Shown piece by piece: positions 10,303-39,242 of a DNA stretch of 64,000 nt (positions are counted from its first letter, which is position 1; each line of letters begins with the position of its first letter). Source of the stretch: Cyanidioschyzon merolae (lineage: Eukaryota); NCBI GenBank assembly GCA_000091205.1, contig AP006485.2. The stretch is one strand, 5' to 3'. Below the pieces are notes generated by a model, which was not told the DNA's origin, searched no databases, and saw only the letters and a list, made by a program, of their open reading frames with translations. A program made the translations under genes and the position numbers.

Positions 10303-11613
10303 ACGTTTGGATCTCTTCGCACTGCCATCAATAATAGTCTTTGTGGGGTTTTTCTTGCGACTGCTTCTGCTCCCTCTTCCATACCCGACTTTGAACAAGA
10401 TGCTCAATGCTTTCCTGGGAGCTAACTTGTCAACAGGTGAAGGGTGTTTATGGCAGTGTGCAAATCCTGATTTTGCAGCTACAACCTGTTGTCGACGCAG
10501 TCAATACGTAAGTAAAAATTGCGATCGACGTAGCTGTTCCATTGTTGAGCTTGTTTGTACAAAGGCGCTGTGCGACCTTTCCATCAGTCATATCGTGTTA
10601 TGGTCAGGTGTGTCCCTCTATATCCACCTCATTTCCTCCGTGCGCCGCGCTGGGGCGTGGAAACGCTTGCTTCACGCCCCCGTACATGTCCATGACTGCT
10701 ACTGAAGGGTACGCTCCATGCACGCCTCCTTTTTTTTGCAGCGTCAACTGTACCCCACGATCACGGGGCTTGTGCGTGGCAATCCCCTCGGCAAGTACAC
10801 TATTCGATGCATACGAGAGTGCACGCAGTTCCGTTCGATAGCGGATTTGCGAAACGCAATGTTATTGACGATGGAACAATTACCAGAAACAAGATCCAAG
10901 CTGGAAAACGGGTCAAGAAATTTCGGTCTGTCTACGCTCCCTTCGTGCGAAACGGTGACGCACACCCTACTGGAATCGATCGCTCGGATGACTCCAGTTC
11001 TAGTACCGAATCCTTTCCCAAGCAAACAGAAGAGGCGGGAGCCCCGCAAGCAGCGCACCACATCATACGGTACCCTGCTGCTCTGGAATGCCGTCTCGCC
11101 GATGAGCGCGAAGAGACAAGAATTTGTCTTTCGAATGCAATGGACCATTCCAAGCGACAAGTGACGTGAGCAATGGTCATGAGTTTGTGAACGAGTCGTC
11201 CATGGACGACGTCAAGGTTCTGGTATCGCTGGATAATCTAGGGACACAAATCGCTTCGCCCCTAGGGTGCCGTGAGAGAGCAACACTGAAGCGTTGAAGA
11301 GTGCACGATTAACGCGTGCTTCACGTACGGAACTTTAAAGCGTGGGAGCTTGAACCAGTGACTCGGATCATTATATCGAATATTCTACGAATCTTTATTC
11401 GATTGCGTCGTGAATCCCCCCGATCCCTGTAACGTAACAATTTCCAGCGGTACAGCGTCAAAGGAGGCATTCCGCGAAAAAATGGCGACCGATCGACAGC
11501 AAACTACTCATGAATCTACACGCTCCTACCTGCTGCATTTCGCATGTCGAGACTGCGGAACTGCAAGTTCGGATAAATGGAAAAACAGGAACATAGAGAG
11601 CAGTAAAGCACTG
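10303..11613 (+). repeat. dispersed repeat family A, copy 1 (longest copy; true 3' end undetermined)
   Basis: Near-identical (>95% by eye) to 24964..25646 (same strand) and to the reverse complement of 38001..39242. Shared start acgtttggatctcttcgcactg. Embedded track ORFs (for example 10807..11169) recur in all copies only because the DNA is duplicated. Confidence 0.8.
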
Positions 11614-12900
11614 CACCCTAAACCGGTACAAATGGAGCGCCGCGAGCCCTGCCCAGACTCGGAGGCCAACAGGTCGTTCCGATTTGCAGTCAAACCGAAA
11701 CAAGAACCCGCGCCCTGCCACTCACCCCGAACAAGTGCTCTCAACAGCGACGCACAACAGACGCATTCTCAAAGCGTTTTCATTGGTTTTGTGCGACAGC
11801 ACCATTGCCGTGGAACCCTCTATTCGACACCCGCATGCGCCTCTGTATCTACGCATGCAAGCATGCATGGATTAGGGTCAAAGCAGTGACACATGTATGC
11901 ATCTATGTCACTATACGTCTAGGTATATCTAGACATATCCTATTCCTACTGGGGTTCGCAGGTCCGGTGACGATTCCGTCGCTGTAACGCTGCATGCGTA
12001 CATTCCTATGTTTTCCATCTCCCGTTCCACGAGCTGGAATTTGGATTCGTATCGCTCGTCGAGGTCGAATTCGAGCTGCTTGTACCAGCGACTCGCGAAC
12101 AGCGAAGTTCCATTCCATGAAGCAAACGAAACAGGTTCGGCGATAGCCAAGAAGGAATGCTCTCTCGATAAAACGAGTATCTGGTCTTACCCGCGCATAC
12201 CAGACGAGGCCCCTGGGAATAAAAGTGCATCAAGTGTGAAAACTGAGCGTTGTCGATCACCCAACCATTCCTTGTTCTGTGCAGCCTTGGTGGCACTAGA
12301 CTGGAATCTCTTCGCGATGCATGTGCCGCACTTGTCGCCACAGGAGGAGAGCAGACGGCAGCGGCATCGCCAGGCACGTGCAATTCTCGAAACATACGGC
12401 AGCAGTGCGTACAACTGGTACCGATACGACACCAGGAGCGAAAGCCGTAGATGAAGCACCGGATCACCACGACATGTGTAGGCTGTGCTCAGTGTTCCTG
12501 ATTCCGGGATAACGTTCTCGTCCTCGAAGGTCCATCTTGGTGGATATACCATTGCTTCTCTGCTGATTGACAGATTCTGTTGCTTCGCTCATCCTTGCAC
12601 CGGGACATATTTCGCAGTGAACGATACAGCAATCCTTCGCACCGGAGCCATCTTACGGTACGTAAGAGTGTAGAATGCGCTCCTGGAGCGCTTCTCGCAC
12701 GTCCGCTGTTCCCTAGCTACGTGAACCGCTTGCAGACTAGGCAACGTTTCCGGATGCCCGGCTCCGTCTGAGATGTTATCGATGAATCCAAAAACAGAGG
12801 CCAGGGCGGATTGTTTGGAGCGAGCCTGGGCGATCGCTCATGAAGATCTTCCAAGATCCAAGACTGCTCAAGCTAACTGCTTCGACGATGTTCATTCGAG

Positions 12901-13452
12901 TCACTGCACTGCGCTCTGAGGCTGTTTCGCACTCAGTGCTTCTTCTAAAGCAAGCACAGTTGCATCCAGTGGTTCCGTCAGCACCACCACAGGTTGTTCC
13001 AGCAGACTTACAAGCTGTTCGACATATTCACGCGAAGGACGTAGCAGCTCCAGTACCGAGCGTGTCACGACGGGTACAGCACCGATGCGTGCCCCGACCA
13101 GCAGTGCACCTGGAATCGCTTGCTCTGTGTACTTGGTGACTCGGAGCCAGACGTCAGCGTTCTCACCAAAGACGACTAAAGCTGGACCACCTCGAAATAG
13201 CGGCAAAAGCGGTCGCTGGTTAGCACGTTCGAGCGCGATGCGTACCCACTTGGGAACAGCATACCGCACGTCGACTGAGGAGCCAAGCGCCCCGGTACCG
13301 TGCAAGATGCGCAGCCTTTGCTTCGTGCGTCCCCAGGCACTGTTCTGTGTGAGTGCAATCACACTAAAGTAGGTTGACTGGCGGCAAATACTTTCCCAGC
13401 GCTCGATCCAGAGTAGCTTACGTAGTACGCGAACGCTTAACGCACCAGTCAT
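12901..13452 (-). CDS. ribosomal protein uL10-like (probably the mitochondrial L10 homolog)
   Basis: ATG at 13452 verified. RLRILHGTGALGSSVDVRYAVPKWVRIALE...LLPLFRGGPALVVFGENADV...AIPGALLVGARIGAVPVVTRSVLELLRPSREYVEQLVSLLEQP follows the Ribosomal_L10 profile (lR.klre.g.elkv.KNtl.r.Ale; L..ll.Gp.alvf...dp; lkgGvlegk.ls.eev..La.LPsreel.a.l). The N-terminal part of the domain looks short. Confidence 0.5.
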   Translation of the reverse strand: MTGALSVRVLRKLLWIERWESICRQSTYFSVIALTQNSAWGRTKQRLRILHGTGALGSSVDVRYAVPKWVRIALERANQRPLLPLFRGGPALVVFGENADVWLRVTKYTEQAIPGALLVGARIGAVPVVTRSVLELLRPSREYVEQLVSLLEQPVVVLTEPLDATVLALEEALSAKQPQSAVQ

Positions 13453-13817
13453 AGGCGTTCAAGCGTACCTGCGACATACCCGAGAAGCAACAGGCCTGAC
13501 AAGCGCTCCGCTGCAGTGCGTTTCTACGGGCGACGCAGGCGGCGCTGCACGTCGACGGTGGGGTGGCGGCGGTGCTGCAGCGACGGGGAGCACGACACAG
13601 GCCTTGTCTACGCTTGCTTGATGCTTTCAGAGGTTCACAGAACTGGATAGGTCCATAGTCGTGGTGTATATACGGGGCTTTGTTCTGTGGAGGTACCGAC
13701 GTTCCCTTTCTGTGAATCGGCGGGCGTGTATTCGATGTGATCGAATGTTAGACTACGAGTACGGTTGAATCCTCGGACAGAGCGATCGTCTGCGGTGGTT
13801 ATGGATGCGATTCTTTA

Positions 13818-18675: not shown

Positions 18676-18717
<42 letters not shown>

Positions 18718-23448: not shown

Positions 23449-23646
23449 TCGTTTCTACAGTTGTGTTTCGAGCCCTCTCTGTTCACAACACCAAAATCAG
23501 TGGCCCTGGCACCGGAACACCGCGCAGTACCGAAGCGTTTCAGAATGTTATCGCCAAAGTCGTCGGTTCGCCTTGGCACGCGAATTCCCATGAACGCGCC
23601 GTCCAGCTTTTCAGCATAAACACACGTGACATGTTTGCGTCTCGAT

Positions 23647-24963: not shown

Positions 24964-25646
24964 TCTACGCTCCCTTCGTGCGAAACGGTGACGCACACCC
25001 TACTGGAATCGATCGCTCGGATGACTCCAGTTCTAGTACCGAATCCTTTCCCAAGCAAACAGAAGAGGCGGGAGCCCCGCAAGCAGCGCACCACATCATA
25101 CGGTACCCTGCTGCTCTGGAATGCCGTCTCGCCGATGAGCGCGAAGAGACAAGCATTTGTCTTTCGAATGCAATGGACCATTCGAAGCGACAAGTGACGT
25201 GAGCAATGGTCATGAGTTTGTGAACGAGTCGTCCATGGACGACGTCAAGGTTCTGGTATTGCTGGATAATCTAGGGACACAAATCGCTTCGCCCCTAGGG
25301 TGCCGTGAGAGAGCAACACTGAAGCGTTGAAGAGTGCACGATTAACGCGTGCTTCACGTACGGAGCTTTAAAGCGTGGGAGCTTGAACCAGTGACTCGGA
25401 TCATTATATCGAATATTCTACGAATCTTTATTCGATTGCGTCGTGAATCCCCCCGATCCCTGTAACGTAACAAATTCCAGCGGTACAGCGTCAAAGGAGG
25501 CATTCCGCGAAAAAATGGCGACCGATCGACAGCAAACTACTCATGAATCTACACGCTCCTGCCTGCTGCATTTCGCATGTCGAGACTGCGGAACTGCAAG
25601 TTCGGATAAATGGAAAAACAGGAACATAGAAAGCAGTAAAGCACTG
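24964..25646 (+). repeat. dispersed repeat family A, copy 2 (truncated at both ends relative to copy 1)
   Basis: Aligns to copy 1 positions 10931..11613 (683 bp) with a few substitutions. Confidence 0.8.
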
Positions 25647-25792
25647 TATGTGAATCTCACCCGTCTCTTTATCACAAGCTCTCAGAATCGGACTCGGTGA
25701 CGTGTCGTGCGGTCCTGTCAGTGACAATCCTGTACCGTCGCTGTCGTCCTCGTCGAGCGACTCCGGTTACGCACCAGGCTTCCTCTGTTCAT

Positions 25793-26998
25793 CTACGCAC
25801 ATATTCCATCGGTAAAGGTCGTTCCTTCAGGGCAGATGCACGTGTCTGTGCCACAAGTCGCCTCAGGCGGGCAGCACAGCAGGCGCTCGAAGCCGTACCA
25901 GAGCGGGGTCGAGAGCTTGCCGCAGTTCTGGTAGCCAGCACGGCAGGCGCAGTTCGTGTTGCTCGGAAGCGTCGTTGGTAGCGGCGTCGCTTCCCAGCTC
26001 TGCCACTGCTTGTTCTTGTTCTGTTGTACCTGCAGCTGAGCCTGGCGGATTGACAACACGCACGTCTGGGTCGGATCACAGCACTCCTGGCCACAGACAG
26101 TCTGGTTGGCGCTCGGGCAGGAGAGCATCGGCTGCTTGTAGTAGCACCATGGGATCTGGCTCAGGGCCTGTGAATCGGCACCCTGGTACGGGTAGATTGG
26201 CTCGAAGCAGCAGCCGCGTTGGAAGCACTCGTGCGACGAGATGCCCGGGAAGCCACAGTTCTGCCGCTCATTCGCATCCACGTAGCACGTTCCGAGCGGC
26301 TCGTAGCATATACCGTTCTGGTTATTCTGATGCTGCTGTTGCAGTTGCGAGGACCAATAGTAATTGGAGTCGAAGCAGCAACCATGGGCAACGCATTCCG
26401 ATTCAGTGACTTGCTGCCTGTTGCCCAGAGCTGCGCAGGGCAGTTGAATGGTGACGTTACAGTTCGGTTGCGGGTACTGCGGCTGATAGACGGGCTCCTG
26501 TCCGGGTTTGTAATAGCAGAAGGGCGCGTACTCGCCGGCTTGCGGCGGCAACCAGCAGCAGCCGTACGATGTACACTCTTGTGGGGTTATTCCAGGCCAA
26601 CCGCAAGCACTGCGGTTCTGAGGCGCCACATCGCAGCTCGGAGCTGGCGTCGGCAACAAGCAGGTGTAGCCGTTCCAGCAGCAACCATACTGAAGACACT
26701 GATCCTGGTTGAGGTTCACACCGCAGATTTCCACCGTATCACACTGCTGTTGCTGGTTGTTCTGGTTCTGGTACTGCTGCTGTTGTGTGAAGATTTGCTG
26801 CTGCTGCTGCTGTTGCTGCGGCTGCTGCTGAATGATGACTTGCTGCTGTTGCTGCGGCTGCAGTTGTTCACCATAGGTGCGCGCCAGCGTCGGCAAGGCC
26901 ACTACCGTCGTGACGGTTCCGCTACCAGCAAACAGGGCTGCCACCGCTGCTGCGAGTAACGTTACCAACAGAATAAATGAGAGGCGGCTGCGTTGCAT
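25793..26998 (-). CDS. secreted Cys-rich protein with 3-4 trefoil (P-type) domains and a Q-rich linker
   Basis: Track start 27007 is TTG; the ATG at 26998 gives MQRSRLSFILLVTLLAAAVAALFAG (signal-peptide-like). After this come Q-rich repeats (QQQQQVIIQQQPQQQQQQQQ). The trefoil units include CDVAPQNRSACGWPGITPQECTSYGCCWLPPQAGEYAPFCYY and RQNCGFPGISSHECFQRGCCFEPIY...PWCYY. Both fit the P-domain consensus R-x-[DN]-C-G-[FY]-P-G-I-[TS]-x2-[EQ]-C-x3-G-C-C-[FW]-x(5-20)-W-C-[FY]. Two further partial matches are present. Confidence 0.65.
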   Translation of the reverse strand: MQRSRLSFILLVTLLAAAVAALFAGSGTVTTVVALPTLARTYGEQLQPQQQQQVIIQQQPQQQQQQQQIFTQQQQYQNQNNQQQQCDTVEICGVNLNQDQCLQYGCCWNGYTCLLPTPAPSCDVAPQNRSACGWPGITPQECTSYGCCWLPPQAGEYAPFCYYKPGQEPVYQPQYPQPNCNVTIQLPCAALGNRQQVTESECVAHGCCFDSNYYWSSQLQQQHQNNQNGICYEPLGTCYVDANERQNCGFPGISSHECFQRGCCFEPIYPYQGADSQALSQIPWCYYKQPMLSCPSANQTVCGQECCDPTQTCVLSIRQAQLQVQQNKNKQWQSWEATPLPTTLPSNTNCACRAGYQNCGKLSTPLWYGFERLLCCPPEATCGTDTCICPEGTTFTDGICA

Positions 26999-28326
26999 CT
27001 TTCGCAATTGAAAATAAATACCAACGCTCGTGAAAACTCAGAAAATTATAAATTGTATCACTTTTGTGAATAATGGTTCGATGAACGCTCCCGTTTTGCT
27101 TCCTGAGCGCCAATGACACACACACACCGATGCGAACGCTTGACACGCTTATGTTCAGCAAAGGACACGGGAGTGAGATGCCTATGTCCAACGTTCGTGC
27201 TCGAAGGAAGATGCCACAACGACAAACAACAGAGTAGTGCTGTGTGCATCGGTAGCGACGCGGCGGGCCGTACACGGAGGCTGGACCCAATGGGTCTACA
27301 ACCGCCACGCCCAGGACCGAGGAGAGAGGCCCTCGCTTTAGGCCCGCGACGTAACGGAATCGCAGCAGTGTACAGGGCGCTGCAGGCATCATACGCGGCG
27401 AATCGGCGGGCCAAATTCCGTTCGCGCCGTCGCTGGCGGTGCGCAAGGCTAGGATCGCCAGCGCGCTAGCCTCGCCACGTGGCGCGCTCTACTGCGGCAT
27501 CAGGTGCGCACGCATGCGCCTTGATCGGTCAGTGCGTCGTGGCGCACCGACGCCGCCGGCTGATGATGACGCTTTGATCGATCCTGCAGCGTTCCGCGTG
27601 GATGCGATCTACACACGAAAACGGGTACACGAGACAGGCACGCTGACGTGCCTCGCCCTGCGTACGGTGTGGTGACGGCTCGGCGCAGTGGCCGGCGGCA
27701 GTGCAATCGCTGCACTGCGCTATGCGAGCTTTCCGTGAAAGTCCAGTGGTTGTTGCGAACCTGGGGCGGTCCGATTGGGGCTCTGCATCCAGGTTGGCAC
27801 GACAACGTGATGGTACAATCATCTATTTTTCGAACAAAAAGCAACTTTTATATCCAGAACGGATCATCGTGTTCAGCGCATCCTCTGAAATCCGAACGCT
27901 CGCCGCCACACCATCCCGCGGACTTGGCATACGCGCACAGCACCCGGATTCCATTCACAACGCGAGGTTGTAATTGTCCATTTATATATATAAAGATGCA
28001 ATTATATCCCATATCCTCTTGAGCCTGTGACGGATTCTCGCGTGATCCGTCGCACGAGACGCCGCAACGGCCACGGGAATTCAAAACGTGAAATGTGACG
28101 CGGCAGCCGTCCAGCGGCGGCGCCAGCCGCGCGCCACCAATGGAGCCGTACAGCGCGTCCGTTCAGGCCATGTTCGCGGCTACCGGGTCGCCAGACGACG
28201 TGACGAGCGTTCAAGCTGCATCAAGACCCGAATAATTGCCCATTCGAACGCTTTCTCTTCAGTCAGGCAGGCAATCGGCGTACGCATCGTCCCGGAGGGA
28301 GTCTAAGAGGCTCCCACTACAGCAAA

Positions 28327-31077
28327 ATGCCCGAGCAGAGTCAACGTATCCGCACAGGGCCGCGCAGCGCAGCTGTACCCACTACAGGTCACGCTCGCCT
28401 AGCTGCTGTGCAGCGAGTATCAGCAGCTACGGGCGAACGACGAGAACGCTTAAAGATAGAGAAAAACGTAACTGAGCGCGAGCCGGCGCAACGTATTGCG
28501 CCTTGTGTGGAGCAGCGACGTGCACGGCACCAGCCGTGGAGCGGGATCTCGCAAACACGGCAAGAGCCTAGCCGCCCCGAGCCTGTGCGCTCCAGTGCAA
28601 GTGCTGCGGGAACGCATGCGACTGCGTCTAGCAGCGGCGTAAACACACCCACAAACTCGGCAGCAGAACGGGTACAAGTTGCGGTGCGCTGTCGCCCTTT
28701 GTCTGTCGAACTGCTGCAGACTGGCGGTGATGCGCCCGTCCAAGCTGTTCGCGTCAATGAGTTATTGCGTGAAGTTCGCGTTCTGCAGCCTACCTATCTG
28801 GCGAGTGCCCATTTGGCTCGGTCAACAAACGCATCAGCGTTGACGGCAGCGGCGCCTGGTGTGCCGCTGCCCGTCTCTGAGGCCGACTTTGATCAGGTGC
28901 CTCCGTATGCGATGCGTTCCTTTACTTTTGACAAGGTTTTCCCCATGAATGCAGGGCAAGAACATGTGTACCAGAGTCTCGTGCAGCCAATCGTGAGCGA
29001 CTCGATCCTCGGCTACAACTGTACGATTTTTGCGTACGGACAAACCGGCACTGGCAAAACGTACACCATGGAGGGCGTGCTGCCAGGACACACCGCTGAG
29101 CCCGGTGCAAGCGGCTGCTCACTCCCGCCAACAGCAGGAATCATTCTTCGAGCCGCAAACCAAATATTTGCCACACTGAAGGATCGCAGCAACGATATCG
29201 AATACACCGTTCGTTGCTCACATCTGGAGCTCTACAATGAGCAGCTTAGCGACTTGCTCGCCGTCGAGGGTGCTGCTCATCCCATGCGCATCCTGCAGGA
29301 TCCCTCAAAAGGCGGTGTTTTCGTTTCCGGACTGGAGGAAATCGTCGTTCGCAACGAGCAGGAGATCATGGCGCTCTTGGAGAAGAGTTCGCAGCGCCGT
29401 CGCACTGCGGAGACAAGCCTCAACCGATACTCTTCCCGGTCACACGCCATTTTCACGATCACGATTCACGTGCGAGAAATGACGCCTGACGGTGAGGATC
29501 TTCTCCGAGTTGGCAAGTTGAATCTCGTGGACCTGGCTGGCTCCGAGAACATTGGGCGCTCGGGTGCAACGCATGAACGAGCACGGGAAGCAGGCTCTAT
29601 TAACCAGTCGCTGCTTACACTGGGTCGCGTCATTAATGCGCTTATCGAAGGTCAGGTCCACATCCCGTATCGCGACAGCAAGTTAACACGGCTACTGCAG
29701 GAGTCTCTGGGCGGCCGCAACAAGACTGCTATCGTTGCCACCATAAGCCCTGCGGCTGCAGATCTCGAGGAGACACTCAATACACTCGATTATGCTTTCA
29801 GGGCGAAGAACATTCGCAATCGACCCACTCTGAATCAAATGCTGATGAAGAAGACGCTGATTCGGGAGTATGCGGAAGAGATCGCACGTCTGCGTCTCGA
29901 GCTCGAGGCAACACGGGCCAAAAACGGCATCTTCGTGCCGCCCGAGCTCTACGCCGAAATGGACGAGGCCCGCCGAACGCACCGTGATCGAATTGCAGCG
30001 CTGGAGCAACGAATCCAGGATCAGGCCCAAGAGCGTGACGTACTCGAGCGAATGCTGGACGAGTCCCGTGACCAGCTGGCACAATCACAGGAGCGGCAGC
30101 AGGTGCTCGAGGGTGAGCTCCGAGCACGAGACGCGGCCATGCACCAGCTACAAGCGCATCTGCACAGACTGGACGCTCAACAGAAAGAAAGCCGCTTCCT
30201 CTTGCGCGAACAAAAGCGAGTGGAAGAACAGCTCGCTTCCGAAGCCCTGTGCCTCATGAACAATCTCACTCAGAGCCTGGTGGATCTCGACACGCTCTAC
30301 GCGAAACTAGAGGAGCGCGATCGCTCGCATAGGGCGTTTTACGGCCACGTGCGTGAACTGGAAACGGTATGCGCAGATACAATGCACCAAATTCGCAGCG
30401 AGATTCACCAGCTGGAGGAACGCATCGAAACCCACGATCATCTCATCCGGGATCGATTCAGTCAGTGCCTGTCATCTTCAATGACGTCGGTGCCGGTGTG
30501 CAAAGCGGACGACGCATACGAACCTGGCGCTGACAAGGAAAATATGAGCGTGTTTGCTAGCGAGCCTCATCTGCAACCATCGACGGATGCGTTACGAGAT
30601 ACGCCAAAGCGGCGCCACTGGAGCTATCCCCGAAAACTGACCCGATCAGCTCCTGAGCACGAACTGCTTGCAGCGTATCGCGGATTGGATGTACATCCCG
30701 CGCGCAGTGATGGGGCAGTAGCAACCATAGAGGCCGCGACGACGACGCTGCCCACCCCGGATGCTGGTTCAGATCAGGGCGAAGCGCCGACATTGCCCTC
30801 GGATGCCACATTCACTCACGATAGGACGCCTTGCGATCCCAGTATCGATGCAATCAAGACGTCGACAAATACAACGGCGACGACTGCATGCGAGCAGGCG
30901 CCACAGCGCGCGGAAACGCTGGACACGATACAGACGCACGATCCTAGCTCGCGGCGTCAGCATCGTCAAACTTGGCCTGGAACTGTCCCGGATGCGAGTC
31001 GTGTGCACCGTCAACCGCCAACGAGCGCCAGCGTCGTTCACCGAGATCGATGTTCAACGCCGGCCCATGTGACGTAA
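28327..31077 (+). CDS. kinesin-5 (BimC/Eg5 family) motor protein
   Basis: ATG at 28327. VQVAVRCRPL...NCTIFAYGQTGTGKTYTMEG...SSRSHAIFTITIHV...LNLVDLAGSENIGRSGA...HIPYRDSKLTRLLQESLGGRNKTAIVATISPA...LNTLDYAFRAKNIRNRP, then a long coiled-coil tail. There is a ~110-aa low-complexity extension before the motor domain. Confidence 0.9.
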   Translation: MPEQSQRIRTGPRSAAVPTTGHARLAAVQRVSAATGERRERLKIEKNVTEREPAQRIAPCVEQRRARHQPWSGISQTRQEPSRPEPVRSSASAAGTHATASSSGVNTPTNSAAERVQVAVRCRPLSVELLQTGGDAPVQAVRVNELLREVRVLQPTYLASAHLARSTNASALTAAAPGVPLPVSEADFDQVPPYAMRSFTFDKVFPMNAGQEHVYQSLVQPIVSDSILGYNCTIFAYGQTGTGKTYTMEGVLPGHTAEPGASGCSLPPTAGIILRAANQIFATLKDRSNDIEYTVRCSHLELYNEQLSDLLAVEGAAHPMRILQDPSKGGVFVSGLEEIVVRNEQEIMALLEKSSQRRRTAETSLNRYSSRSHAIFTITIHVREMTPDGEDLLRVGKLNLVDLAGSENIGRSGATHERAREAGSINQSLLTLGRVINALIEGQVHIPYRDSKLTRLLQESLGGRNKTAIVATISPAAADLEETLNTLDYAFRAKNIRNRPTLNQMLMKKTLIREYAEEIARLRLELEATRAKNGIFVPPELYAEMDEARRTHRDRIAALEQRIQDQAQERDVLERMLDESRDQLAQSQERQQVLEGELRARDAAMHQLQAHLHRLDAQQKESRFLLREQKRVEEQLASEALCLMNNLTQSLVDLDTLYAKLEERDRSHRAFYGHVRELETVCADTMHQIRSEIHQLEERIETHDHLIRDRFSQCLSSSMTSVPVCKADDAYEPGADKENMSVFASEPHLQPSTDALRDTPKRRHWSYPRKLTRSAPEHELLAAYRGLDVHPARSDGAVATIEAATTTLPTPDAGSDQGEAPTLPSDATFTHDRTPCDPSIDAIKTSTNTTATTACEQAPQRAETLDTIQTHDPSSRRQHRQTWPGTVPDASRVHRQPPTSASVVHRDRCSTPAHVT

Positions 31078-31431
31078 TCCCGGGCACGTCTCGGCAACGA
31101 AGGCGACGGCAACGCATCGGTAATCAGCAGCACGGCGACGAGCGGTCGCTCGCTGCGACGCAGTGCCAATGCCGCTCAGCATCGCGACGCCACAGCTCCC
31201 ACAGCGATGTATCGTTGGCGACAGACGCCATGAGGCTGCGGTCGCTTGCTCGACCAAGGCAGTCGCAATGCCGGGTCCCGGCACGCAAGGCCAGGGCACC
31301 GTCCTGGCAATCCTGCGGACACCAGCTCGCTTTCTCTGACGTGCGCGTGCGTCGTGTGCGCTCGCGCAGGCATCGCTGGACCCGCCCGGGAAGCCTTGAC
31401 ACTCCCTGGAAACCCCCAGATGCCGACTTCA

Positions 31432-32538
31432 CTACGCAGCGTTGGTATCCAGACGTCCATCCGCAGATGCTGCTGACCAGATCTTGACGGAGCGATCGCG
31501 TTCGAGGGCGCCACTCGCGATGACGTGATCTGTCGGATGTGCGTCCACTGCCAGCACAACATCGGTGTGCGCCTCAAGGCGCTGGACCATCTTCCGTGTG
31601 TGCAGATTCCACAGGTACACAAACCCGTCTTCGCTACCACTCAGCACATACTTGTGCTCGGGGTGTGTCACCACAAACGTGCTGAATACACAGTAGCGAG
31701 CATTGCAATGTCCCCGCAAAGTCTTGAGCACCCGCCCTTGGCCATCGCGGTAGCTCCATAAACGTATCGTGCTATCTAGGGTATTCGCCAGGATGTAGCC
31801 CCCGTTGGGGGTGAATTTCACAAAGCTCACAGGCAAGCTTTCCTCTCCAACGATCGTATATAAACAACGGCCATCAGGCACGTCCCATATCCTACAAAGC
31901 CCATCATACGACGAAGATACCAACAGGGTTCCGTCGCGATTGAAATGCACCGCACTCACCGGTTCCGAGTGCGCCGGCAGCGTCCGTAGACATCGACGCA
32001 TTCGCACGTCCCAAAAACAAATGGTTTCATCGAACGATCCCGAGGCCAAAACATTACCCTGGGGATTAAAGTTGCAGCAGAAGACATAATTGGAGTGTCC
32101 TTCGAAACGGTGCACGGCGACGCCCCGCTCCACATCCCAGAGCCGCAGCGTGCGATCATCGGACGCGGAGGCGAGCCAGCGCGACAGGCTCGCCGAACGA
32201 CTCGCCCCGCTGCCAGCTGCTGCTGCTGCGGACGCTGCACCAGCCCAGGCTACGTCGCTGATGCCTTGCGCGTGTCCCTCGAGAACGCCCACTAGTCTGC
32301 CATCTGCGACTGACCATAGCCGAACCGTCTTGTCTGCAGAAGAAGACGCCAACAGACGACCGTCAGGAGAGAACTTCACAGAGGAGATGGCCTTTCGGTG
32401 ACCCTCGAGCGTGTACTGCAACACGAACTGCAAGTCAGGCGAGGTCTCCTGCTCTTTGCGAGCGCTTCCAGCAAACTCGTGCACAGGCGCACAGGTGCCC
32501 TCACAGCACTCTGGTCCTCGCTCTACGCCGCTGGACAT
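31432..32538 (-). CDS. WDR5: WDR5-like WD40 repeat protein
   Basis: Track start 32559 is GTG; the first ATG is 32538 (MSSGVERG...). LEGHRKAISSVKFSPDGRLLASSSADKTVRLW...GHSNYVFCCNFNPQGNVLASGSFDETICFWDV...LPAHSEPVSAVHFNRDGTLLVSSSYDGLCRIWD...VSFVKFTPNGGYILANTLDSTIRLW is near-collinear with human WDR5. An Ala-rich insertion (AWAGAASAAAAAGSGASRSASLSRW) sits in one blade. Confidence 0.9.
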   Translation of the reverse strand: MSSGVERGPECCEGTCAPVHEFAGSARKEQETSPDLQFVLQYTLEGHRKAISSVKFSPDGRLLASSSADKTVRLWSVADGRLVGVLEGHAQGISDVAWAGAASAAAAAGSGASRSASLSRWLASASDDRTLRLWDVERGVAVHRFEGHSNYVFCCNFNPQGNVLASGSFDETICFWDVRMRRCLRTLPAHSEPVSAVHFNRDGTLLVSSSYDGLCRIWDVPDGRCLYTIVGEESLPVSFVKFTPNGGYILANTLDSTIRLWSYRDGQGRVLKTLRGHCNARYCVFSTFVVTHPEHKYVLSGSEDGFVYLWNLHTRKMVQRLEAHTDVVLAVDAHPTDHVIASGALERDRSVKIWSAASADGRLDTNAA

Positions 32539-32915
32539 GATGCGGATTCTTGCAGTCACCGCCCCAGCTCACGGTTGCTTTCGAGAGCACCCAACCGTCT
32601 CAATCAGAACGCTACCGCGCTACAGGCTGCTGCTCGGCCGGTGAACCGAAGCACCGCACCAGAAGACGTACAGCAGCAGCAGCAGCAGCAACTACTATTA
32701 TCGACTACCAACCAATCAACCAACCACCAGCTGCTGGGCGTCCACAGTTCTTCGACACAGCGCGGACCTGTGGCGCTTGTTAAATAAAGTCCCTGTCAAC
32801 GTTAGAAGCGTTCCCCTCGAAAGCCGCCTCTGGAATGATATGCAACGACGTCGTGTTGCCGTCGTATGGCGCCCTGTGAGGCGCGCACGGATATGTGTGC
32901 AACGCATTGATCCGT

Positions 32916-32961
32916 GACGCGCACGCACGCACGCATGCGTGCGTGTATGCGTGCGTGCGCG
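32916..32961. promoter_or_regulatory. alternating purine-pyrimidine imperfect palindrome (Z-DNA/cruciform-prone) in the divergent WDR5 / carrier intergenic region
   Basis: gacgcgcacgcacgcacgcatgcgtgcgtg(tatg)cgtgcgtgcgcga. The arms are reverse complements apart from a 4-nt insertion. It is followed by ttgccgcg direct repeats at 32964..32995. The regulatory role is speculative. Confidence 0.3.
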
Positions 32962-33266
32962 ATGTTGCCGCGTTGCCGCGTTGCCGCCGCCGCCGTCGTT
33001 GTCGGTGCCACGCGATGTGTGACACCGATCCGGGTAGCCCGTTCGGCATGCAGCCGATGGCGAATACGCCGTCGTTGTCTACCCCGCGAGCACCCAATGC
33101 TCTATGTGATCAGTGACACGATAAATGCGCTACGACCCTGACAGGTGTATATATCTATCGATGGACAGGCGCCTCTTGGTCTTGTTTGACCGACTTTGTG
33201 CTATCGGCTGCAGCTTCTCGTTGTGCACTTCGAGCATCAGAGGGTGCCTCACAACGTAGGTTCGCC

Positions 33267-33870
33267 TCAGCTTCGCGGGTCTCTGCTCTTCAGCACCACC
33301 CATCGTCCGATACTCATGGCGGTGTTTAAGTCTCTGTTCAAGAATTTCATAGGTTTATTGCCGCTGGGTGGTTTCAGCAATGCAAGGATTCCTAGTGGTC
33401 GCACGCTATGCGCTATTAGAGTCTCGTCGACGTCCTGTCGGGGAAACATCTTTTCTCGACTATCCCCCTTCTTCTTCTTCTCTTCAATGGTCATGAATCA
33501 TGGATAGTATGGAGGAAAGGAAAGCAGCTCTATCCCGATAGATTCGGCAAAAGCCTGGACGCATGGGGAATGGTGAGATGCAACGTTGTCCGGTAGAAGG
33601 ACGCCGCCATTCGTCAGATGATTCTTCAGTGATTCGATAACGTGGTTGGTGCTCTTGTATGAGCCTTCTCTACGACCCCAAGCTGAAGCCGCCAAATGAA
33701 TCCACTGCAGCTGGAACAGATGATGGTGTCCTCGTTCTCTTCGAATTCGATCCTGAATTCCACGGACGCCCTCTATGCCAGTACGCGTGAAAGCTCCGAC
33801 AATTTCGTCTGAAAAAAAAAAGTCCCTTGCACTCAGAAAAGGATTCAAAATCCTTGTGCATCATACCAAT
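33267..33870 (-). mobile_element. decayed Tc1/mariner-superfamily DDE transposase remnant
   Basis: Track ORF 33498..33848 (-) reads ...FFFSDEIVGAFTRTG...GGVLLPDNVASHHSPCVQAFAESIGIELLSFPPYYP. This matches the Tc1 second-D region (FQQDNAPCH...EWF...I.VLPWP.QSPDLNP) with the upstream FSDE motif, then a stop. The adjacent ORF 33267..33494 continues in another frame. No intact ORF. The surrounding 33.1-34.2 kb is AT-richer than the flanks. Confidence 0.5.
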
Positions 33871-34658
33871 CGCTGAGTTCCAGGAACGAATTCGTTACTT
33901 TTTCGGTAGAAAATTGCTATGCATGAACTGGAACTATTTTTGCGAATGTATACCGCTGTTTTCAGGACAACCCGAACAAGCCATTAAGCAACAGAGACGC
34001 CTCTGGTGGCTAGGATCATTGCGTTTGCTTTCCATAGGGTCATCAACGCGCTTTTTTCTACCACAGTCCATAAGCAATCTCTAAATATATCGGGTTTTGG
34101 CACGGAATGCATATGCTTCCTTCTTTCAATATGTATGAACCATCTGAGTTCTAACGTATGACTGACCTGAAGGACGCATGCAATGCTCCCCGCACTTTTC
34201 AGTAAAGAATCTCTACCCTACATTCAATTCGTCTACGATATATGCAAAAAATGCCTAGTGATTCCGACCTCCCGCTACATACCGCGAAAACGCATTCCAA
34301 GAAATTCAGCAAGGGTGCAACACAATTGAGTTGAAAGACTATAAGGTGCAACGGGTGCACGCCCGGATACCCAGCGCCGCGGCACGGCCGATGCCTTACG
34401 TTGAGGCATTGCCTGCTGCGCAGTGCAACCTTATAGTTCGAGACTTCTGGTACTAGCTTTTTGCAGAAACTTGTCTGGGATACCATACACAAACAGATAA
34501 ACTTGGGACACGATTGCACCCGGCTGCGCGTCGTGCAGGAGCTCGAAAACGTGGTTGCAACGCCACCGCACGCTGAACCTGCGGAGCGTTCTTGGCGAAC
34601 AGGACGCGACTGGGAGTCCCATTTACTGTTGGCTGGATCAACGTGACTCACGCTTATC

Positions 34659-35612
34659 ATGAGCGCTCAAGAAGCGGTGCAACGACCGCTTCCTAACTAT
34701 CTGCAGTTCGTTTTCGGCGGACTGGCAGGCATGGGTGCGACGCTTCTGGTGCAGCCGTTCGACGTCGTGAAAACACGCATGCAGTTGACGCAATCAGTCC
34801 AAGGCGCTCAGGCTCCAGGTCCGCTGTACGTGCTCCGCGCGATTGTTGTCCAGGAGGGCGCCTCAAAACTCTATGCGGGCTTATCAGCGGGGCTGTTCCG
34901 CCAGATCACTTACACGACGACGCGTCTCGGGGTATACGGTGTTCTTCTCGAAGAACTCACCCGTATTCGAAAAGCCCAGCAGGCGAGCTCGGCTCACGAC
35001 GGCGAGTCCCAGCGGCAGGGCGTTGCACTGCCCTTCAGCTGGAAAGCTGGCGCTGGACTCACCGCTGGTACTATTGGAGCATTGGTCGGCACGCCTGCGG
35101 AGGTGGCGCTCATTCGGATGATGGCAGACGGACGACTGCCCCCAGAGCGACGACGAAACTATCGGTCTGTCTTCGATGCCCTGATTCGCATCGTACGCGA
35201 AGAAGGCATTATGACACTGTGGCGGGGAGCTTTGCCGACGGTAGGGCGCGCAGCGCTGCTCAATATGGCGCAACTCGGTACGTATTCCCAGGCGAAGGAG
35301 ATGATTTTGAGCACTGGGCTCGTTGGGGATCATCTCGGAACCCATGTCTTGGCATCGACGTGTAGCGGCTTTGCAGCTACGTGTATTTCCTTGCCTCTCG
35401 ATAACGCTAAGACGAAGCTGCAGCATATGCGGGATCGTGAGTACGCCGGAATGCTGGATGCGCTGTTGAAGACTTCACGTTCTGAGGGCATTCCTGCGCT
35501 TTGGAGGGGGTTCATGCCCTACTTTTTGCGTTTAACACCGCACACCATTGGAGCATTCGTCTTACTCGAGCAGTTGAAGAAGCTCTATTTTACGTGGCGC
35601 CAAGTGTTGTAG
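34659..35612 (+). CDS. mitochondrial carrier family protein, 2-oxoglutarate/malate (or dicarboxylate) carrier-like
   Basis: ATG at 34659. FVFGGLAGMGATLLVQPFDVVKTRMQL...YAGLSAGLFRQITYTTTRLGVY...GTPAEVALIRMMADGRLPPERRRNYRSVFDALIRIVREEGIMTLWRG...LPLDNAKTK...WRGFMPYFLRLTPHTIGAFVLLEQ is near-collinear with SLC25A11. Three carrier repeats are present. Confidence 0.9.
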   Translation: MSAQEAVQRPLPNYLQFVFGGLAGMGATLLVQPFDVVKTRMQLTQSVQGAQAPGPLYVLRAIVVQEGASKLYAGLSAGLFRQITYTTTRLGVYGVLLEELTRIRKAQQASSAHDGESQRQGVALPFSWKAGAGLTAGTIGALVGTPAEVALIRMMADGRLPPERRRNYRSVFDALIRIVREEGIMTLWRGALPTVGRAALLNMAQLGTYSQAKEMILSTGLVGDHLGTHVLASTCSGFAATCISLPLDNAKTKLQHMRDREYAGMLDALLKTSRSEGIPALWRGFMPYFLRLTPHTIGAFVLLEQLKKLYFTWRQVL

Positions 35613-36448
35613 CAAAAAATAGAATCTACACGGGGCGTATGATGAACCGAATCTCGGTCCAAGTTTTCCGGGGCAGGACAAAGACCAGACGCTTTGGACG
35701 GATTCTGCTCGCCAGAGTCGCGCATGTGAGGCTTGCGTACATTGCGCTTTGTTTTTTGCTCGCGTTAATGCCACCTGGGTGCACCGGCTCATGCGCAAAC
35801 TACATGTCGCTGGCATTCGCGTCGGCACGCTCCGCAGCGATGCTAGTCGTACGAAGGCGCTAACGCAACGCGAGTATGATATGAACGTCATACGAGGTTT
35901 TTTGATCACGTGTTGCAACGATACGTTCGCAACAGAAGCGAGCATGTCCAGGGACAGCTCGAATGAACAAAATGCGCATTCTACTGGCAACTAGAATGCA
36001 GAGGTTCCAGGTTTTATAGGTGCCGGTGCTGGTCGCTTGCAGCTGCGTCAAGTCATCGCTGCAATCAATGCAGTGCCGGGCACTTATTCCCCAAAATGCC
36101 GTGACGATATGCTCGTTTCATTAGATGGCTGATAATTGAGACCGTCGCGATGGAAGCGGCCCCCAAAATCAAACACAACGCTCTGTAATGGGCCGCATTC
36201 CAGGCTTGGTTCGCCTCATGAGGTAGTGTTGCCGCTTGCCATACAGCGCGACGCTGCAGTAGCGTCACAGCCGTCCTGTTTCGGGGCTCGAGGCTTTCCT
36301 TGGTATCAGCTGCGCATGCGATGATGTGGACACCCGCAAAAACGTGCGCGGTGCCGCCTCCACAATGAAGAAGCAACGCACCGAAACGCCGCGCATGTGC
36401 ACAGGCTCTCGAAGCACCGGGAGTCTTGCGAGTGAGAGTCTCACTCAG

Positions 36449-37684
36449 TCAGCGCTTGGTCGCATGCGCGGGTGCACCATTCCCCGCGGAGTCGGTCTGG
36501 TCGAGCGCCAGAGCGGCTCGTAGCATCTCGTGCAATGCATCTCCACCGTCAAGGACACTCTCTGCGTCACTGCAGGTGAGGCCCGTGCGCAAGTCTTTCA
36601 CCAAGGTAAACGGACTCAGAATATAGGAACGAACGAGGCGATCTGCACTGCCAAAGCCGGCGCTACCGCCGTGATGTGTCATTGACGCCTGTCGTTGCCT
36701 TCTTTCCTGCAGATAGCGCTCACGGAGTTTCGATCGGAGCACATATAGCGCTCGAGCCTTGTTCTGGTGCTGCGAACGCTCGCTCCGACAGGTTACCACG
36801 ATGCCACTCGGTCGATGGGTGATTCGCACTGCAGAGTCCGTCTTATTCACGTGTTGGCCACCGGCGCCCGAGGAGCGCATCGTCTCGATGAGCAAATCGT
36901 CGGGATGAATGTTGAGCGCTTGTAACGCTTCTGATGCGACTTCTTCTTCATCCAGTAGCGGTATGATCGACACACTTGCAAAGCTCGTGTGACGCCTCTG
37001 GGACGCGTCAAAAGGCGAATGACGAACCAGGCGGTGAATACCGGCCTCGCCACGGAGCCAAGCGGTAGCCCAGGCGAGTCCATCGGTGCCGCTGCGTACA
37101 AAGAGGGCAGCATAGCGAAGTCCGGCGACTTCACCCGGGCTCGAGTCCGTGAGCTTCACTTCTTGGAAACGCAGGGATCGACTCGCCGCCGCAGACTCTG
37201 CCCATCTCTGGTACATGCGAACGAGCATACTACACCAGTCCATGGCCTCAGTACCACCTGCACCTGCCCGGACCTCAACCAGGCAAGAGCGGTGGAGGTC
37301 GGAGGGTTCATCGGCGCTTTCGCTCCGCGTACTCGCCCCATGAAGAAGCGCCATTGCTTCAATTCGCTGCGATCTAAGACGCAGTGCCTCTATCTCATCA
37401 CGAAAGAGAGCACCAGAGTCCGTTGTCGCACTCCCTTCCTCTGAGCAGAGCGTCAAACAGGCCTGAACTTCTGCAGAAAGCGTATCGACTTCGGAAACGA
37501 GGCGCTGTAGCTCAGCTCTTTCGCGAAGCAGCAAAGCACCCTGCTTCGCAGCGCGGGCTGTACTCCAGGTGCCTGGTTGGAGGCATGCGTTTTCGAGCTC
37601 GCGTAGGCGACGAACCAACTGCGGATAGCGCAGGCGCTGACGAACGAGCGCTAAGGAGCGCTGTATGGCTTCTAGGTCCCGCAC
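36449..37684 (-). CDS. organellar (bacterial-type) peptide chain release factor 2 (prfB-like); 5' end unresolved
   Basis: RF2-specific SPF tripeptide (VRHSPFDASQRRHTSFASV), GGQ motif (RSSGAGGQHVNKTDSAVRITH), and AGAGGTEAMDWCSMLVRMYQRWAE. The N-terminal helical domain aligns from the first codon. The track start is GTG and is preceded in frame by TGA. No in-frame ATG exists before residue ~113. Confidence 0.85.
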   Translation of the reverse strand: MRDLEAIQRSLALVRQRLRYPQLVRRLRELENACLQPGTWSTARAAKQGALLLRERAELQRLVSEVDTLSAEVQACLTLCSEEGSATTDSGALFRDEIEALRLRSQRIEAMALLHGASTRSESADEPSDLHRSCLVEVRAGAGGTEAMDWCSMLVRMYQRWAESAAASRSLRFQEVKLTDSSPGEVAGLRYAALFVRSGTDGLAWATAWLRGEAGIHRLVRHSPFDASQRRHTSFASVSIIPLLDEEEVASEALQALNIHPDDLLIETMRSSGAGGQHVNKTDSAVRITHRPSGIVVTCRSERSQHQNKARALYVLRSKLRERYLQERRQRQASMTHHGGSAGFGSADRLVRSYILSPFTLVKDLRTGLTCSDAESVLDGGDALHEMLRAALALDQTDSAGNGAPAHATKR

Positions 37685-37751
37685 CTCGACTGCTGAAGCG
37701 CAACGTGCGCGTCAAGCGCTGTATCACGAAAAAGAATCACAGCTTGATGCT

Positions 37752-37877
37752 TCAAAAAGAGGCGCCAACCGTCACCACGAAACGTAACCTGTTGTTTTTC
37801 CAACGCGGCATCCAGCGCGTGCGGTACAGTTCGACGCTGCCGAACGCTGTACGCGGAGCGTCAACGTGGACGTTCAT
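37752..37877 (-). other. 41-codon ATG-initiated upstream ORF in the +1 frame relative to the RF2 body, ending in UGA
   Basis: ATGAACGTCCACGTTGACGCTCCGCGTACAGCGTTCGGCAGCGTCGAACTGTACCGCACGCGCTGGATGCCGCGTTGGAAAAACAACAGGTTACGTTTCGTGGTGACGGTTGGCGCCTCTTTTTGA translates to MNVHVDAPRTAFGSVELYRTRWMPRWKNNRLRFVVTVGASF. It is basic with no acidic run and has presequence-like character. Confidence 0.4.
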
Positions 37878-38000
37878 GGAACTTGCGGAGAAAGCATTGG
37901 GAAACTCCAACTTTATCAGATTAGAATTGAGGCCTGAGCTCGTCTTTCTGTTCTTGTGTTGTAATTTTTTTCTTTACTTGTTCAGATGTACAGCGATGAG

Positions 38001-39242
38001 ATGCGAAATGCAGCAGGTAGGAGCGTGTAGATTCATGAGTAGTTTTCTGTCGATCGGTCGCCATTTTTTCGCGGAATGCCTCCTTTGACGCTGTACCGCT
38101 GGAATTTGTTACGTTACAGGGATCGAGGGGATTCACGACGCAATCGAATAAAGATTCGTAGAATATTCGATATAATGATCCGAGTCACTGGTTCAAGCTC
38201 CCACGCTTTAAAGTTCCGTACGTGAAGCACGCGTTAATCGTGCACTCTTCAACGCTTCAGTGTTGCTCTCTCACGGCACCCTAGGGGCGAAGCGATTCGT
38301 GTCGCTAGATTATCGAGCAATACCAGAACCCTGACGTCGTCCATGGACGACTCGTTCACAAACTCATGACCATTGCTCACGTCACTTGTCGCTTCGAATG
38401 GTCCATTGCATTCGAAAGACAAATGCTTGTCTCTTCGCGCTCATCGGCGAGACGGCATTCCAGAGCAGCAGGGTACCGTATGATGTGGTGCGCTGCTTGC
38501 GGGGCTCCCGCCTCTTCTGTTTGCTTGGGAAAGGATTCGGTACTAGAACTGGAGTCATCCGAGCGATCGATTCCAGTAGGGTGTGCGTCACCGTTTCGCA
38601 CGAAGGGAGCGTAGACAGACCGAAATTTCTTGACCCGTTTTCCAGCTTGGATCTTGTTTCTGGTAATTGTTCCATCGTCAATAACATTGCGTTTCGCAAA
38701 TCCGCTATCGAACGGAACTGCGTTCACTCTCGTATGCATCGAATAGTGTACTTGCCGAGGGGATTGCCACGCACAAGCCCCGTGATCGTGGGGTACAGTT
38801 GACGCTGCAAAAAAAAGGAGGCGTGCATGGAGCGTACCCTTCAGTAGCAGTCATGGACATGTACGGGGGCGTGAAGCAAGCGTTTCCACGCCCCAGCGCG
38901 GCGCACGGAGGAAATGAGGTGGATATAGAGGGACACACCTGACCATAACACGATATGACTGATGGAAAGGTCGCACAGCGCCTTTGTACAAACAAGCTCA
39001 ACAATGGAACAGCTACGTCGATCGCAATTTTTACTTACGTATTGACTGCGTCGACAACAGGTTGAAGCTGCAAAATCAGGATTTGCACACTGCCATAAAC
39101 ACCCTTCACCTGTTGACAAGTTAGCTCCCAGGAAAGCATTGAGCATCTTGTTCAAAGTCGGTATGGAAGAGGAAGCAGAAGCAGTCGCAAGAGAAACCCC
39201 ACCAAGACTATTATTGATGACAGTGCGAAGAGATCCAAACGT
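38001..39242 (-). repeat. dispersed repeat family A, copy 3 (inverted; ~1.24 kb)
   Basis: The reverse complement aligns to copy 1 at 10303..11545. Its 3' end (element sense) stops 68 bp before the end of copy 2. It lies ~320 bp upstream of the RF2 body. Confidence 0.8.

Follow-up and report, generated by a model that had tools for sequence, protein, structure and literature searches.

A family of old relics probably homogenised and rearranged by recombination

The window analysed here, a stretch of 64,000 nucleotides from Cyanidioschyzon merolae 10D chromosome 3, contains four members of an ancient dispersed family of ~1.39 kb with terminal inverted repeats (TIRs), which we refer to as family A and in which no coding signal was found (Table 1). 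A bacterial origin of the window is ruled out by its kinesin, mitochondrial carrier and trefoil domains and by exact matches to the C. merolae 10D proteins BAM79079 and BAM79081. Three of these copies have near-identical interiors, which in the two complete ones are enclosed by strongly diverged termini, and contigs from related environmental strains connect the sequences flanking copies 2 and 3 in an alternative order. We consider it probable, from these sequence comparisons taken together, that the copies are old non-coding TIR relics, that copies 1-3 have undergone gene conversion among themselves, and that a crossover between copies 2 and 3 inverted the segment between them.

Table 1. Family A copies and associated features in the window
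Feature	Coordinates	Strand	Evidence
Copy 1, complete element, ~1.39 kb	10248..11638	+	nhmmer profile match 10254-11642, model 2-1390 of 1393
Copy 1, high-identity (putative conversion) tract	10303-11613	+	self-BLAST, MAFFT
Copy 1, 5' TIR, degenerate, CTACATTCGTGTTCGAATAAAATGGGAC	10248..10275	+	5' ends aligned with reverse-complemented 3' ends
Copy 1, 3' TIR, strongly degenerate, approximate coordinates	11611..11638	+	end alignments
Copy 2, 5'-truncated, 3' end kept	24961..25666	+	profile, model 676-1381
Copy 2, high-identity tract	24964-25646	+	self-BLAST, MAFFT
Copy 3, complete element	37900..39297	-	profile match 39291-37900, model 2-1390
Copy 3, high-identity tract	37998-39242	-	self-BLAST, MAFFT
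Copy 3, diverged 5' terminus, including TIR 39270-39297 (motif match 39270-39289)	39243-39297	-	
Copy 3, diverged 3' terminus	37900-37997	-	
Copy 4, old, 5'-truncated, not homogenised	43737..44214	+	model 905-1384; ~60% identical to copies 1-3
Inverted tract, left arm, putative recombination substrate of copies 2/3, 618 bp	24964..25581	+	
Inverted tract, right arm, 618 bp	37998..38615	-	
Putative inverted segment, 12,351 bp, five genes (trefoil-domain protein, BimC kinesin, WD40 protein, mitochondrial carrier, organellar RF2)	25647..37997	.	contig-to-window BLAST, flank and SNP table
Family A TIR sequence, CTACGCCCATGTCAGAATAAAATGGAAC			

Near-identical copies in the window

A first-pass annotation of this DNA had described three near-identical copies, and self-BLAST and MAFFT placed them within 3 bp of its coordinates. 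Positions 10303-11548 aligned with 39242-37998 at 98.56% identity over 1246 columns (17 mismatches, 1 gap), and 10931-11613 aligned with 24964-25646 at 98.98% over 683 bp. The near-identity given earlier was thus real, but its range of 95-99% was too wide, as the measured values span 98.5-99.0%. Repeat finding and MAFFT agreed with the self-BLAST pairs, and the similarity was far beyond chance. Also as annotated, copy 1 lies ~200 bp downstream of the stop codon of V-ATPase C, and copy 3 adjoins RF2, lying 314 bp upstream of its start. What had been overlooked was copy 4, together with the outer ends of copies 1 and 3, which extend ~50 bp and ~90 bp past the high-identity tract in diverged form and carry degenerate inverted repeats.

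Family A is an ancient dispersed family with degenerate terminal inverted repeats

An nhmmer profile search found full-length family A members in five of five unrelated loci of C. merolae-like metagenomes (L026, L027, L028, L030 and L040). With the four copies of the window, this gave 10 members in ~151 kb from six independent regions. Unlinked members were 54-60% identical to each other and 74-78% identical to the consensus, with lengths of 1354-1381. Since copies 1 and 3 match the profile almost from end to end, and homology past ~1.39 kb was absent from all 10 members, the copies are not, as had been proposed, fragments of a longer element that was not captured. Most sampled members were full length; two of the 10 (copies 2 and 4) were 5'-truncated with an intact 3' end. 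The copy density of ~1 per 15 kb suggests a genome total of hundreds of copies or more, an estimate that is biased because the loci were chosen beside Fanzor-type repeats.

The first-pass annotation had seen no obvious TIR; degenerate ones are present just outside its coordinates. The consensus 5' end matched the reverse-complemented 3' end at 22 of 28 positions, which ranked first among 6612 offsets (z=6.1). These repeats of ~28 bp sit exactly at the conservation boundaries, although they are degenerate in individual copies. Because the local alignment alone was equalled in 35 of 1000 shuffles, the strength of the TIR support comes from their position at the boundaries and from the offset scan. 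Target-site duplications, which had been proposed as a second feature to look for at the termini, were not recognisable: flanks did not match in W_c1, W_c3, L028 or L040, where short duplications would be erased in copies ~25% diverged from consensus. Across the window and metagenome loci examined, the TIR motif was confined to the ends of family A members, and no autonomous partner sharing it was detected. A TIR-like motif inside the unrelated repeat CMe-1A (L027 6347-6366) belongs to the coding end of Fanzor and was a chance match. The most likely identity of family A is that of a non-autonomous class II transposon, an assignment carried by the degenerate TIRs since neither a target-site duplication nor an autonomous partner was seen.

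Family A lacks coding and RNA signals

In agreement with the first-pass annotation, which had found no transposase, reverse transcriptase (RT) or protein homology, Pfam at E<=1 returned nothing in the repeat, and protein searches returned no family outside the same loci. The longest frame (157 aa) was compared with 5.8 billion proteins and retrieved only these loci, and a search with the copy 4 ORF returned nothing. A period-3 conservation signal was likewise absent across family members, and on these results taken together a protein-coding repeat was rejected. An RNA gene was rejected for the lack of Rfam matches, both at the gathering threshold and at E<=1.

We also considered whether a function might maintain family A, for example as a gene for a non-coding RNA or an intergenic module acting in cis, in which case its members would not be decaying relics. 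The length of its members is very uniform (1354-1381 bp) despite ~25% divergence from consensus, and the predominance of full-length members would fit such a role. However, the element was conserved to a similar degree over its whole length (0.5-0.65) and lacked a strongly conserved core, its members were not consistently placed or oriented with respect to adjacent genes, and copies 2 and 4 are truncated. Together with the Rfam result, this leaves a functional role with scarcely any probability.

Diverged termini surround near-identical interiors

At their termini, copies 1 and 3 were identical at only 30/52 and 56/99 positions (57-58%), compared with 98.6% in their interiors, and these termini were as diverged as any two unlinked members. 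Near-identical interiors within diverged termini point to a conversion tract between resident copies rather than to a new insertion. Furthermore, divergence between strains in metagenome contigs was 1.0-1.85% inside the tract versus ~0.45% in the flanks, and variant blocks at 11215/11231/11242/11248 and 11025/11060 occupied paralogous sites that varied from source to source. Only ~2 of 618 positions distinguish the two inverted copies in the metagenome strains. Such near-identical inverted copies are hard for short-read assemblers to cross, and the contigs may be mosaics, which weakens the evidence from shared polymorphism and, to a lesser degree, that for the inversion.

These patterns are consistent with a model in which an ancient burst of a ~1.39 kb non-coding TIR element would have left relics scattered in C. 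merolae intergenic DNA, and the neighbouring copies 1, 2 and 3 would have swapped sequence by non-allelic gene conversion, making their interiors 98.5-99% alike. The end points previously taken as truncations can then be read differently: 10303, 11548 and 11613 would be conversion-tract edges, and 10931 would mark the point at which copy 2 was truncated at its 5' side long ago. Conversion at the present ~57% identity would be inefficient, and the model needs exchange that began in young copies and has continued since.

The first-pass annotation had favoured recent activity or local duplication, neither of which accounts for the diverged termini. A recently active element, with three fresh and variously truncated insertions of a longer master element elsewhere, could explain the 98.5-99% identity, the dispersal of the family and the loss of the 5' part, but not of the 3' end, in two of the four copies in the window. 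A fresh insertion, however, would have copied the termini too, and homology ends at ~1.39 kb in every member. Moreover, collinearity between the metagenome contigs and the window extended across each of the copies, which thus occupy matching locations in related strains, with no presence/absence difference and no insertion polymorphism, and a 26-mer scan of these contigs found only the same three loci and no other at 98% or more. The lack of an RT, a transposase or a poly(A) tail further argues against fresh insertion, which is largely refuted and, in our estimate, highly improbable.

Another explanation is plain local segmental duplication, in which pieces of copy 1, as unique intergenic DNA without transposon ancestry, were copied nearby by repair synthesis. 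The high-identity copies are all confined to 29 kb and were not seen elsewhere, and the edges of copy 2 are sharp, with no homology found left of 24964. Against this, full-length homologues of 54-60% identity occur at five unrelated loci, and copies 2 and 3 run into family-type 3' ends unlike that of copy 1, which shows that old members were already resident at those sites. Nor are these the only copies, or parts of a tandem segmental duplication with conserved flanks: diverged members are dispersed, and the window copies lie 12-26 kb apart, one of them inverted, with unrelated flanks outside the element ends. We therefore regard a duplication of unique DNA as improbable and favour gene conversion between resident relics.

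An alternative order of the segment between copies 2 and 3

Copies 2 and 3 share a tract in inverted orientation (24964-25581 versus 38615-37998; 98.54% over 618 bp by self-BLAST), with 12,416 bp separating the arms. Seven contigs from six assemblies cross this tract; all showed the alternative order and none the reference order. Both reciprocal junctions were present: L005, L011, L023 and L024 had the order [..24963][tract][37997..], and L006, L007/L025 and L009 had the order [..25647][tract][38616/39243..]. L025 spans 36.4 kb, of which >10 kb lie on either side of the junction. In the public short-read assemblies consulted for the 10D arrangement, every contig stops in or at the repeat. As in an NAHR inversion, the repeats are inverted, both breakpoints lie inside them and reciprocal junctions were observed, the 10D order being that of the reference assembly.

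The reversed joining of flanks in seven contigs points to an inversion of 25647-37997 via the 618-bp inverted tract. This segment has probably been flipped by recombination, with one orientation in the 10D reference and the other in the related environmental contigs. A crossover inside the 618 bp shared by copies 2 and 3 would have turned the 12.35-kb five-gene segment around and, in the same event, traded one end point between the two copies, so that their present ends would be recombinant. The end points were also considered as a guide to the ancestral orientation and rejected, because both arrangements need equal numbers of events and the weak flank homology is that of the element termini.

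Alternatively, the junctions might be assembly artefacts, either of the metagenome contigs or of the 10D reference, in which case the repeat family and its conversion would still be real. The tract is near-identical in the metagenome strains, so that short reads can hardly bridge it, the repeat is where many contigs terminate, and the 2007 finishing paper described earlier misassembly amounting to >20 kb and gaps 99.4-100% identical to other regions (PMC1955436). However, random assembly paths would give a mixture of orders, whereas all seven crossing contigs agree across six assemblies, and one of them is 36 kb long. The reference, in turn, was finished with Sanger reads and BACs, which are expected to span a 618-bp repeat. 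An artefact thus appears unlikely, though with a real share of the probability, and we retain the inversion as the preferred explanation.

Comparison with known elements and systems

Family A resembles non-autonomous TIR (class II) transposons, in particular long MITE-like elements, in being non-coding, dispersed and uniform in length, with imperfect ~28-bp TIRs and a star-like divergence from one old burst. Unlike typical MITEs, it is longer (1.39 kb) and has neither a recognisable target-site duplication nor a transposase-bearing partner with the same TIR among the loci searched. The P-MITE survey reports MITEs in every plant species it covered except C. merolae (PMC3964958).

A second repeat of the same genome is CMe-1A / TE-N2_CMe, a Fanzor1-bearing interspersed repeat (Bao & Jurka 2013, PMC3627910), which we infer to be the 253-copy WSV486-like element reported in C. 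merolae (Nozaki et al. 2007, PMC1955436). It shares with family A the intergenic habitat, a similar age (~75-80% to consensus) and the lack of classification, and it often lies within a few kb of A members. Both families also have pairs with long 98.9-99% tracts in the window, where CMe-1A relics are present as well. In contrast to family A, however, CMe-1A is ~3 kb long, bears remnants of TnpB/Fanzor ORFs and has been reported to be without TIRs. Searching the window by nhmmer with a 3.3-kb CMe-1A copy gave matches at 47929-50493 and in five weaker places, none of them in family A, and neither BLAST between loci nor ORF comparison found any similarity between the two. We therefore rejected the assignment of family A to the 253-copy/CMe-1A family.

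The 24-kb 'flip/flop' of Saccharomyces chromosome XIV (PMC9731477) likewise has conversion-homogenised inverted repeats around a multi-gene segment that occurs in two orientations, with breakpoints inside the repeats. Here, by contrast, the repeats are transposon relics rather than genes, the segment is 12.35 kb, and one orientation is documented per source.

C. merolae also has 26 non-LTR copies (PMC1955436), and the two 5'-truncated members with intact 3' ends are reminiscent of non-LTR or SINE-like elements. Unlike these, family A has no poly(A) or simple-repeat tail (its 3' ends align to ...TTAATCTGACACGGATGCAG), no RT domain by Pfam, mostly full-length members and TIRs, and the LINE/SINE reading was rejected.

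Implications for genome structure in Cyanidioschyzon

C. merolae serves as a model of a 'minimal' eukaryote, and its genome is commonly portrayed as containing hardly any mobile DNA, with only 0.7% transposons. A far-reaching version of our findings, which we regard as speculative and rather unlikely to hold in full, is that family A is an individually undescribed major TIR family of hundreds to about a thousand copies, making up several per cent of the genome, and that exchange between its relics, by conversion and inversion, may be a main source of structural variation between Cyanidioschyzon strains; bolder still, its uniform full-length retention would reflect function. More modestly, this is ordinary repeat biology with some new detail, and the general understanding of transposons and recombination is unchanged.

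A repeat that had been taken for recently active would thus be an old, decayed TIR family whose copies were kept locally identical by recombination, and near-identity in the C. merolae genome is not evidence of mobility. That 10D and its environmental relatives probably differ by a 12-kb five-gene inversion has consequences for comparing strains, for mapping reads and for the design of gene-targeting constructs whose homology arms lie near these repeats.

Family A is an old dispersed family, present in full in the window

Self-comparison of the window recovered, almost to the base, the three near-identical copies marked in the first-pass annotation: 10303-11548 aligned with 39242-37998 (98.56% over 1246 columns), 10931-11613 with 24964-25646 (98.98% over 683 bp), and 24964-25581 with 38615-37998 (98.54% over 618 bp). 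Unrelated loci were fetched from C. merolae-like metagenome contigs via the TnpB/Fanzor-type motifs of a second repeat family, which had turned up during a check of other intergenic ORFs, and 5/5 of these independent loci contained a family A member. A profile built from members at metagenome loci resolved the window copies (Table). Unlinked members are 54-60% identical pairwise and 74-78% identical to the consensus, with lengths of 1354-1381 bp. Ten members in ~151 kb, a sample biased to repeat-rich places, point to about one member every 15 kb. Family A is an old dispersed family whose full element is present in the window: copies 1 and 3, previously taken for pieces of a longer, uncaptured element, cover the model almost end to end. 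Short-read public assemblies of C. merolae-like genomes systematically break at family A and CMe-1A copies (L012-L021 and L026-L029 ends), and several 100-kb contigs stop within a few kb of either element.

Homology among members begins and ends at common points. At 22/28 positions, the 5' consensus end, CTACGCCCATGTCAGAATAAAATGGAAC, agrees with the reverse complement of the 3' consensus end, CTGCATCCGTGTCAGATTAAAATGGAGC. Of 6612 offset comparisons this one ranked first (z = 6.1), and it lies exactly at both boundaries; the motif was absent outside family A ends in the window and the fetched metagenome loci. Because 35/1000 shuffles reached the local-alignment score, these degenerate TIRs are considered probable, not certain. 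No obvious TIR had been seen by eye; inspection of the termini adds probable TIRs, with no target-site duplication recognisable at the ends inspected.

There was no evidence that family A is coding or a known RNA. None of ten stop-to-stop frames of the unit matched Pfam even at E<=1, and the unit had no Rfam match at E<=1. No ORF from inside the repeat was present in an exact-sequence lookup in the protein collection, and the longest frame matched three clusters among 5.8 billion proteins; the three all trace to the same loci of C. merolae-like metagenomes, which bears out the earlier description of the embedded ORFs as lacking homology. An alignment of six diverged members showed no period-3 conservation (phase means 0.559, 0.587 and 0.590) and unremarkable conservation power at 1/3.

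Table. Family A members and other features. Coordinates refer to the window unless a metagenome locus (L-number) is given.
Feature	Location	Strand	Detail
Family A copy 1	10254-11642	+	profile search; model 2-1390 of 1393
Family A copy 2	24961-25666	+	profile search; model 676-1381
Family A copy 3	39291-37900	-	profile search; model 2-1390
Family A copy 4	43737-44214	+	profile search; model 905-1384; ~60% identical
Family A member	L026 4541-5902		essentially whole profile
Family A member	L027 1567-2943		essentially whole profile
Family A member	L028 9380-10769		essentially whole profile
Family A member	L030 14439-15749		profile 74-1386 only
Family A member	L040 17383-18752		essentially whole profile
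Family B	13822-15021 and 58413-59612		direct, 44.6 kb apart; 98.9% over 1200 bp
TnpB/Fanzor-type ORF	13881-14336	-
TnpB/Fanzor-type ORF	58472-58927	-
TnpB/Fanzor-type ORF	48028-48435	-
TnpB/Fanzor-type ORF	33270-33497	-
CMe-1A (Fanzor1) relic	47929-50493	-	2.6 kb; 76-82% identical to copies at other loci
TE-N2_CMe-like fragment	45242-45501	+	matches only CMe-1A 5' region
TE-N2_CMe-like fragment	51087-51208	+	matches only CMe-1A 5' region
Distant Fanzor-like remnant	13953-14537
Distant Fanzor-like remnant	58554-59140
Distant Fanzor-like remnant	33138-33546
RF2	36449-37684	-	single unbroken 411-aa ORF; PCRF + RF-1 domains; PCRF match from residue 25
tRNA	44681-44803	-	Rfam match 48.4 bits, 123 nt; missed by ARAGORN in bacterial mode
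76-bp tandem array	23648-24253		8.0 copies; immediately upstream of 2319-aa ORF; unit no multiple of 3

Copies 1-3 were probably kept alike by gene conversion

Between their ends, copies 1 and 3 are 98.6% identical over 1246 bp; the first ~50 bp (30/52) and last ~95 bp (56/99) are identical at the level seen between unlinked members. A new insertion would carry copied termini as well, and gene conversion between two resident copies yields an abrupt internal identity switch. Since their diverged termini switch abruptly to a near-identical interior, copies 1 and 3 fit conversion between residents. Past 25646, copy 2 continues into a family-type 3' end unlike that of copy 1; left of 24964 it shows no homology, and 10931 is therefore an old truncation point.

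All copies lie at the same places in related strains. Metagenome contigs align collinearly with the window across copy 1 (L008, L010), copy 4 and the other copies. When the metagenome collection was scanned for an invariant 26-mer of the tract, the high-identity part common to copies 1-3, seven contigs matched, each from one of these three loci. The window diverges from those seven by ~0.45% in the flanks and 1.0-1.85% in the tract, in which the same variant blocks (11215/11231/11242/11248 and 11025/11060) occupy differing paralogous positions across sources, although, for the blocks, short-read contigs can be paralogue mosaics. The diverged termini around a 98.6% interior and the shared positions in related strains do not support the recent activity proposed in the first-pass annotation. 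The data are best explained by an ancient family of non-coding repeats with TIRs, neighbouring members of which would have been homogenised by gene conversion.

A probable inversion between copies 2 and 3

Six assemblies supplied seven contigs that cross the copies, and 7/7 differ from the reference in the same manner; other contigs just end inside the repeat. The order in L005, L011, L023 and L024 is copy 2 left flank, tract and copy 3 RF2-side flank, and in L006, L007/L025 and L009 it is copy 2 trefoil-side flank, tract, and the remainder of copy 3 with its outer flank. The 36.4-kb contig L025 runs 49137->39243, then through a full 1.3-kb unit, then 25647->35194. These junctions match exactly an inversion of 25647-37997 through the 618-bp inverted tract, within which a crossover would have taken place. 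The contigs would then carry one complete unit plus a fragment of 618 bp, and in 10D copies 2 and 3 (683 and 1245 bp) would be the two reciprocal products of recombination. An assembly artefact is a live rival explanation of the alternative junctions because the two arms differ at only ~2 of 618 positions in the metagenome strains, but random path choice is disfavoured by all seven contigs taking one path. We consider it probable that 10D and the environmental strains differ by an inversion mediated by the repeats.

Genes and other repeats in the window

The window is not bacterial. Its long ORFs code for a BimC kinesin, a mitochondrial carrier, an organellar-type RF2, V-ATPase subunit C and a trefoil-domain protein; the kinesin and carrier are identical to C. 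merolae 10D BAM79079 and BAM79081. The 5' end of RF2 had been called anomalous, but its intact ORF makes a frameshift unnecessary. RF2 here is a nuclear-encoded organellar release factor in a red alga, which probably accounts for the apparent anomaly. A paralogue (L026 10764-12059; 431 aa, PCRF + RF-1) starts directly after a CMe-1A copy and is in part ~70% identical to window 36750-36902. The tRNA lies ~470 bp from copy 4 of family A and is presumably encoded by a nuclear gene with an intron. The 76-bp array has 3.9 copies in a related metagenome strain (L011 4888-5186) versus 8.0 in the window, and its copy number is thus variable.

Family B, a second high-identity pair, is located in relics of a TnpB/Fanzor-type element and may be a further conversion tract between old copies. 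The four TnpB/Fanzor-type ORFs contain RuvC-II, zinc-finger and RuvC-III-like motifs (TIPVDEFRTSYTHHELCC..., NRDFNVAINIRRC), and their profile matched 222 metagenome protein clusters. ORFs of 631-723 aa that lie immediately upstream of a C-terminal Fanzor fragment (L030 7979-9874 and L037 994-3165; weak DUF8286 match) may represent a Fanzor1 gene that is still intact, or almost so, in C. merolae-like strains from the environment. There is also a third dispersed family (window 33155-34345, L027 8076-8910 and L027 13588-14966; 67-69% identity between loci); given a weak DDE_3 transposase Pfam match in the copy at L027 8597-9013, it may be the relic of a class II transposase.

The elements reported in C. 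merolae comprise just 26 non-LTR and 8 class II ones, along with an interspersed 3.2-kb element that carries a WSV486-like ORF and is present in 253 copies (PMC1955436). Bao and Jurka described the Fanzor1 element CMe-1A (~150 copies) and TE-N2_CMe (~70 copies), and also list a Fanzor1 of white spot syndrome virus (PMC3627910); we infer that the 253-copy element belongs to the same family. Family A has no sequence in common with the CMe-1A-type relics. Among the papers covered by our literature search, none describes family A individually. Cho et al. (PMC9812998) report that repeats account for 12.7% of the C. merolae genome and for the length of its intergenic regions, and family A is probably included, in aggregate, in that total.
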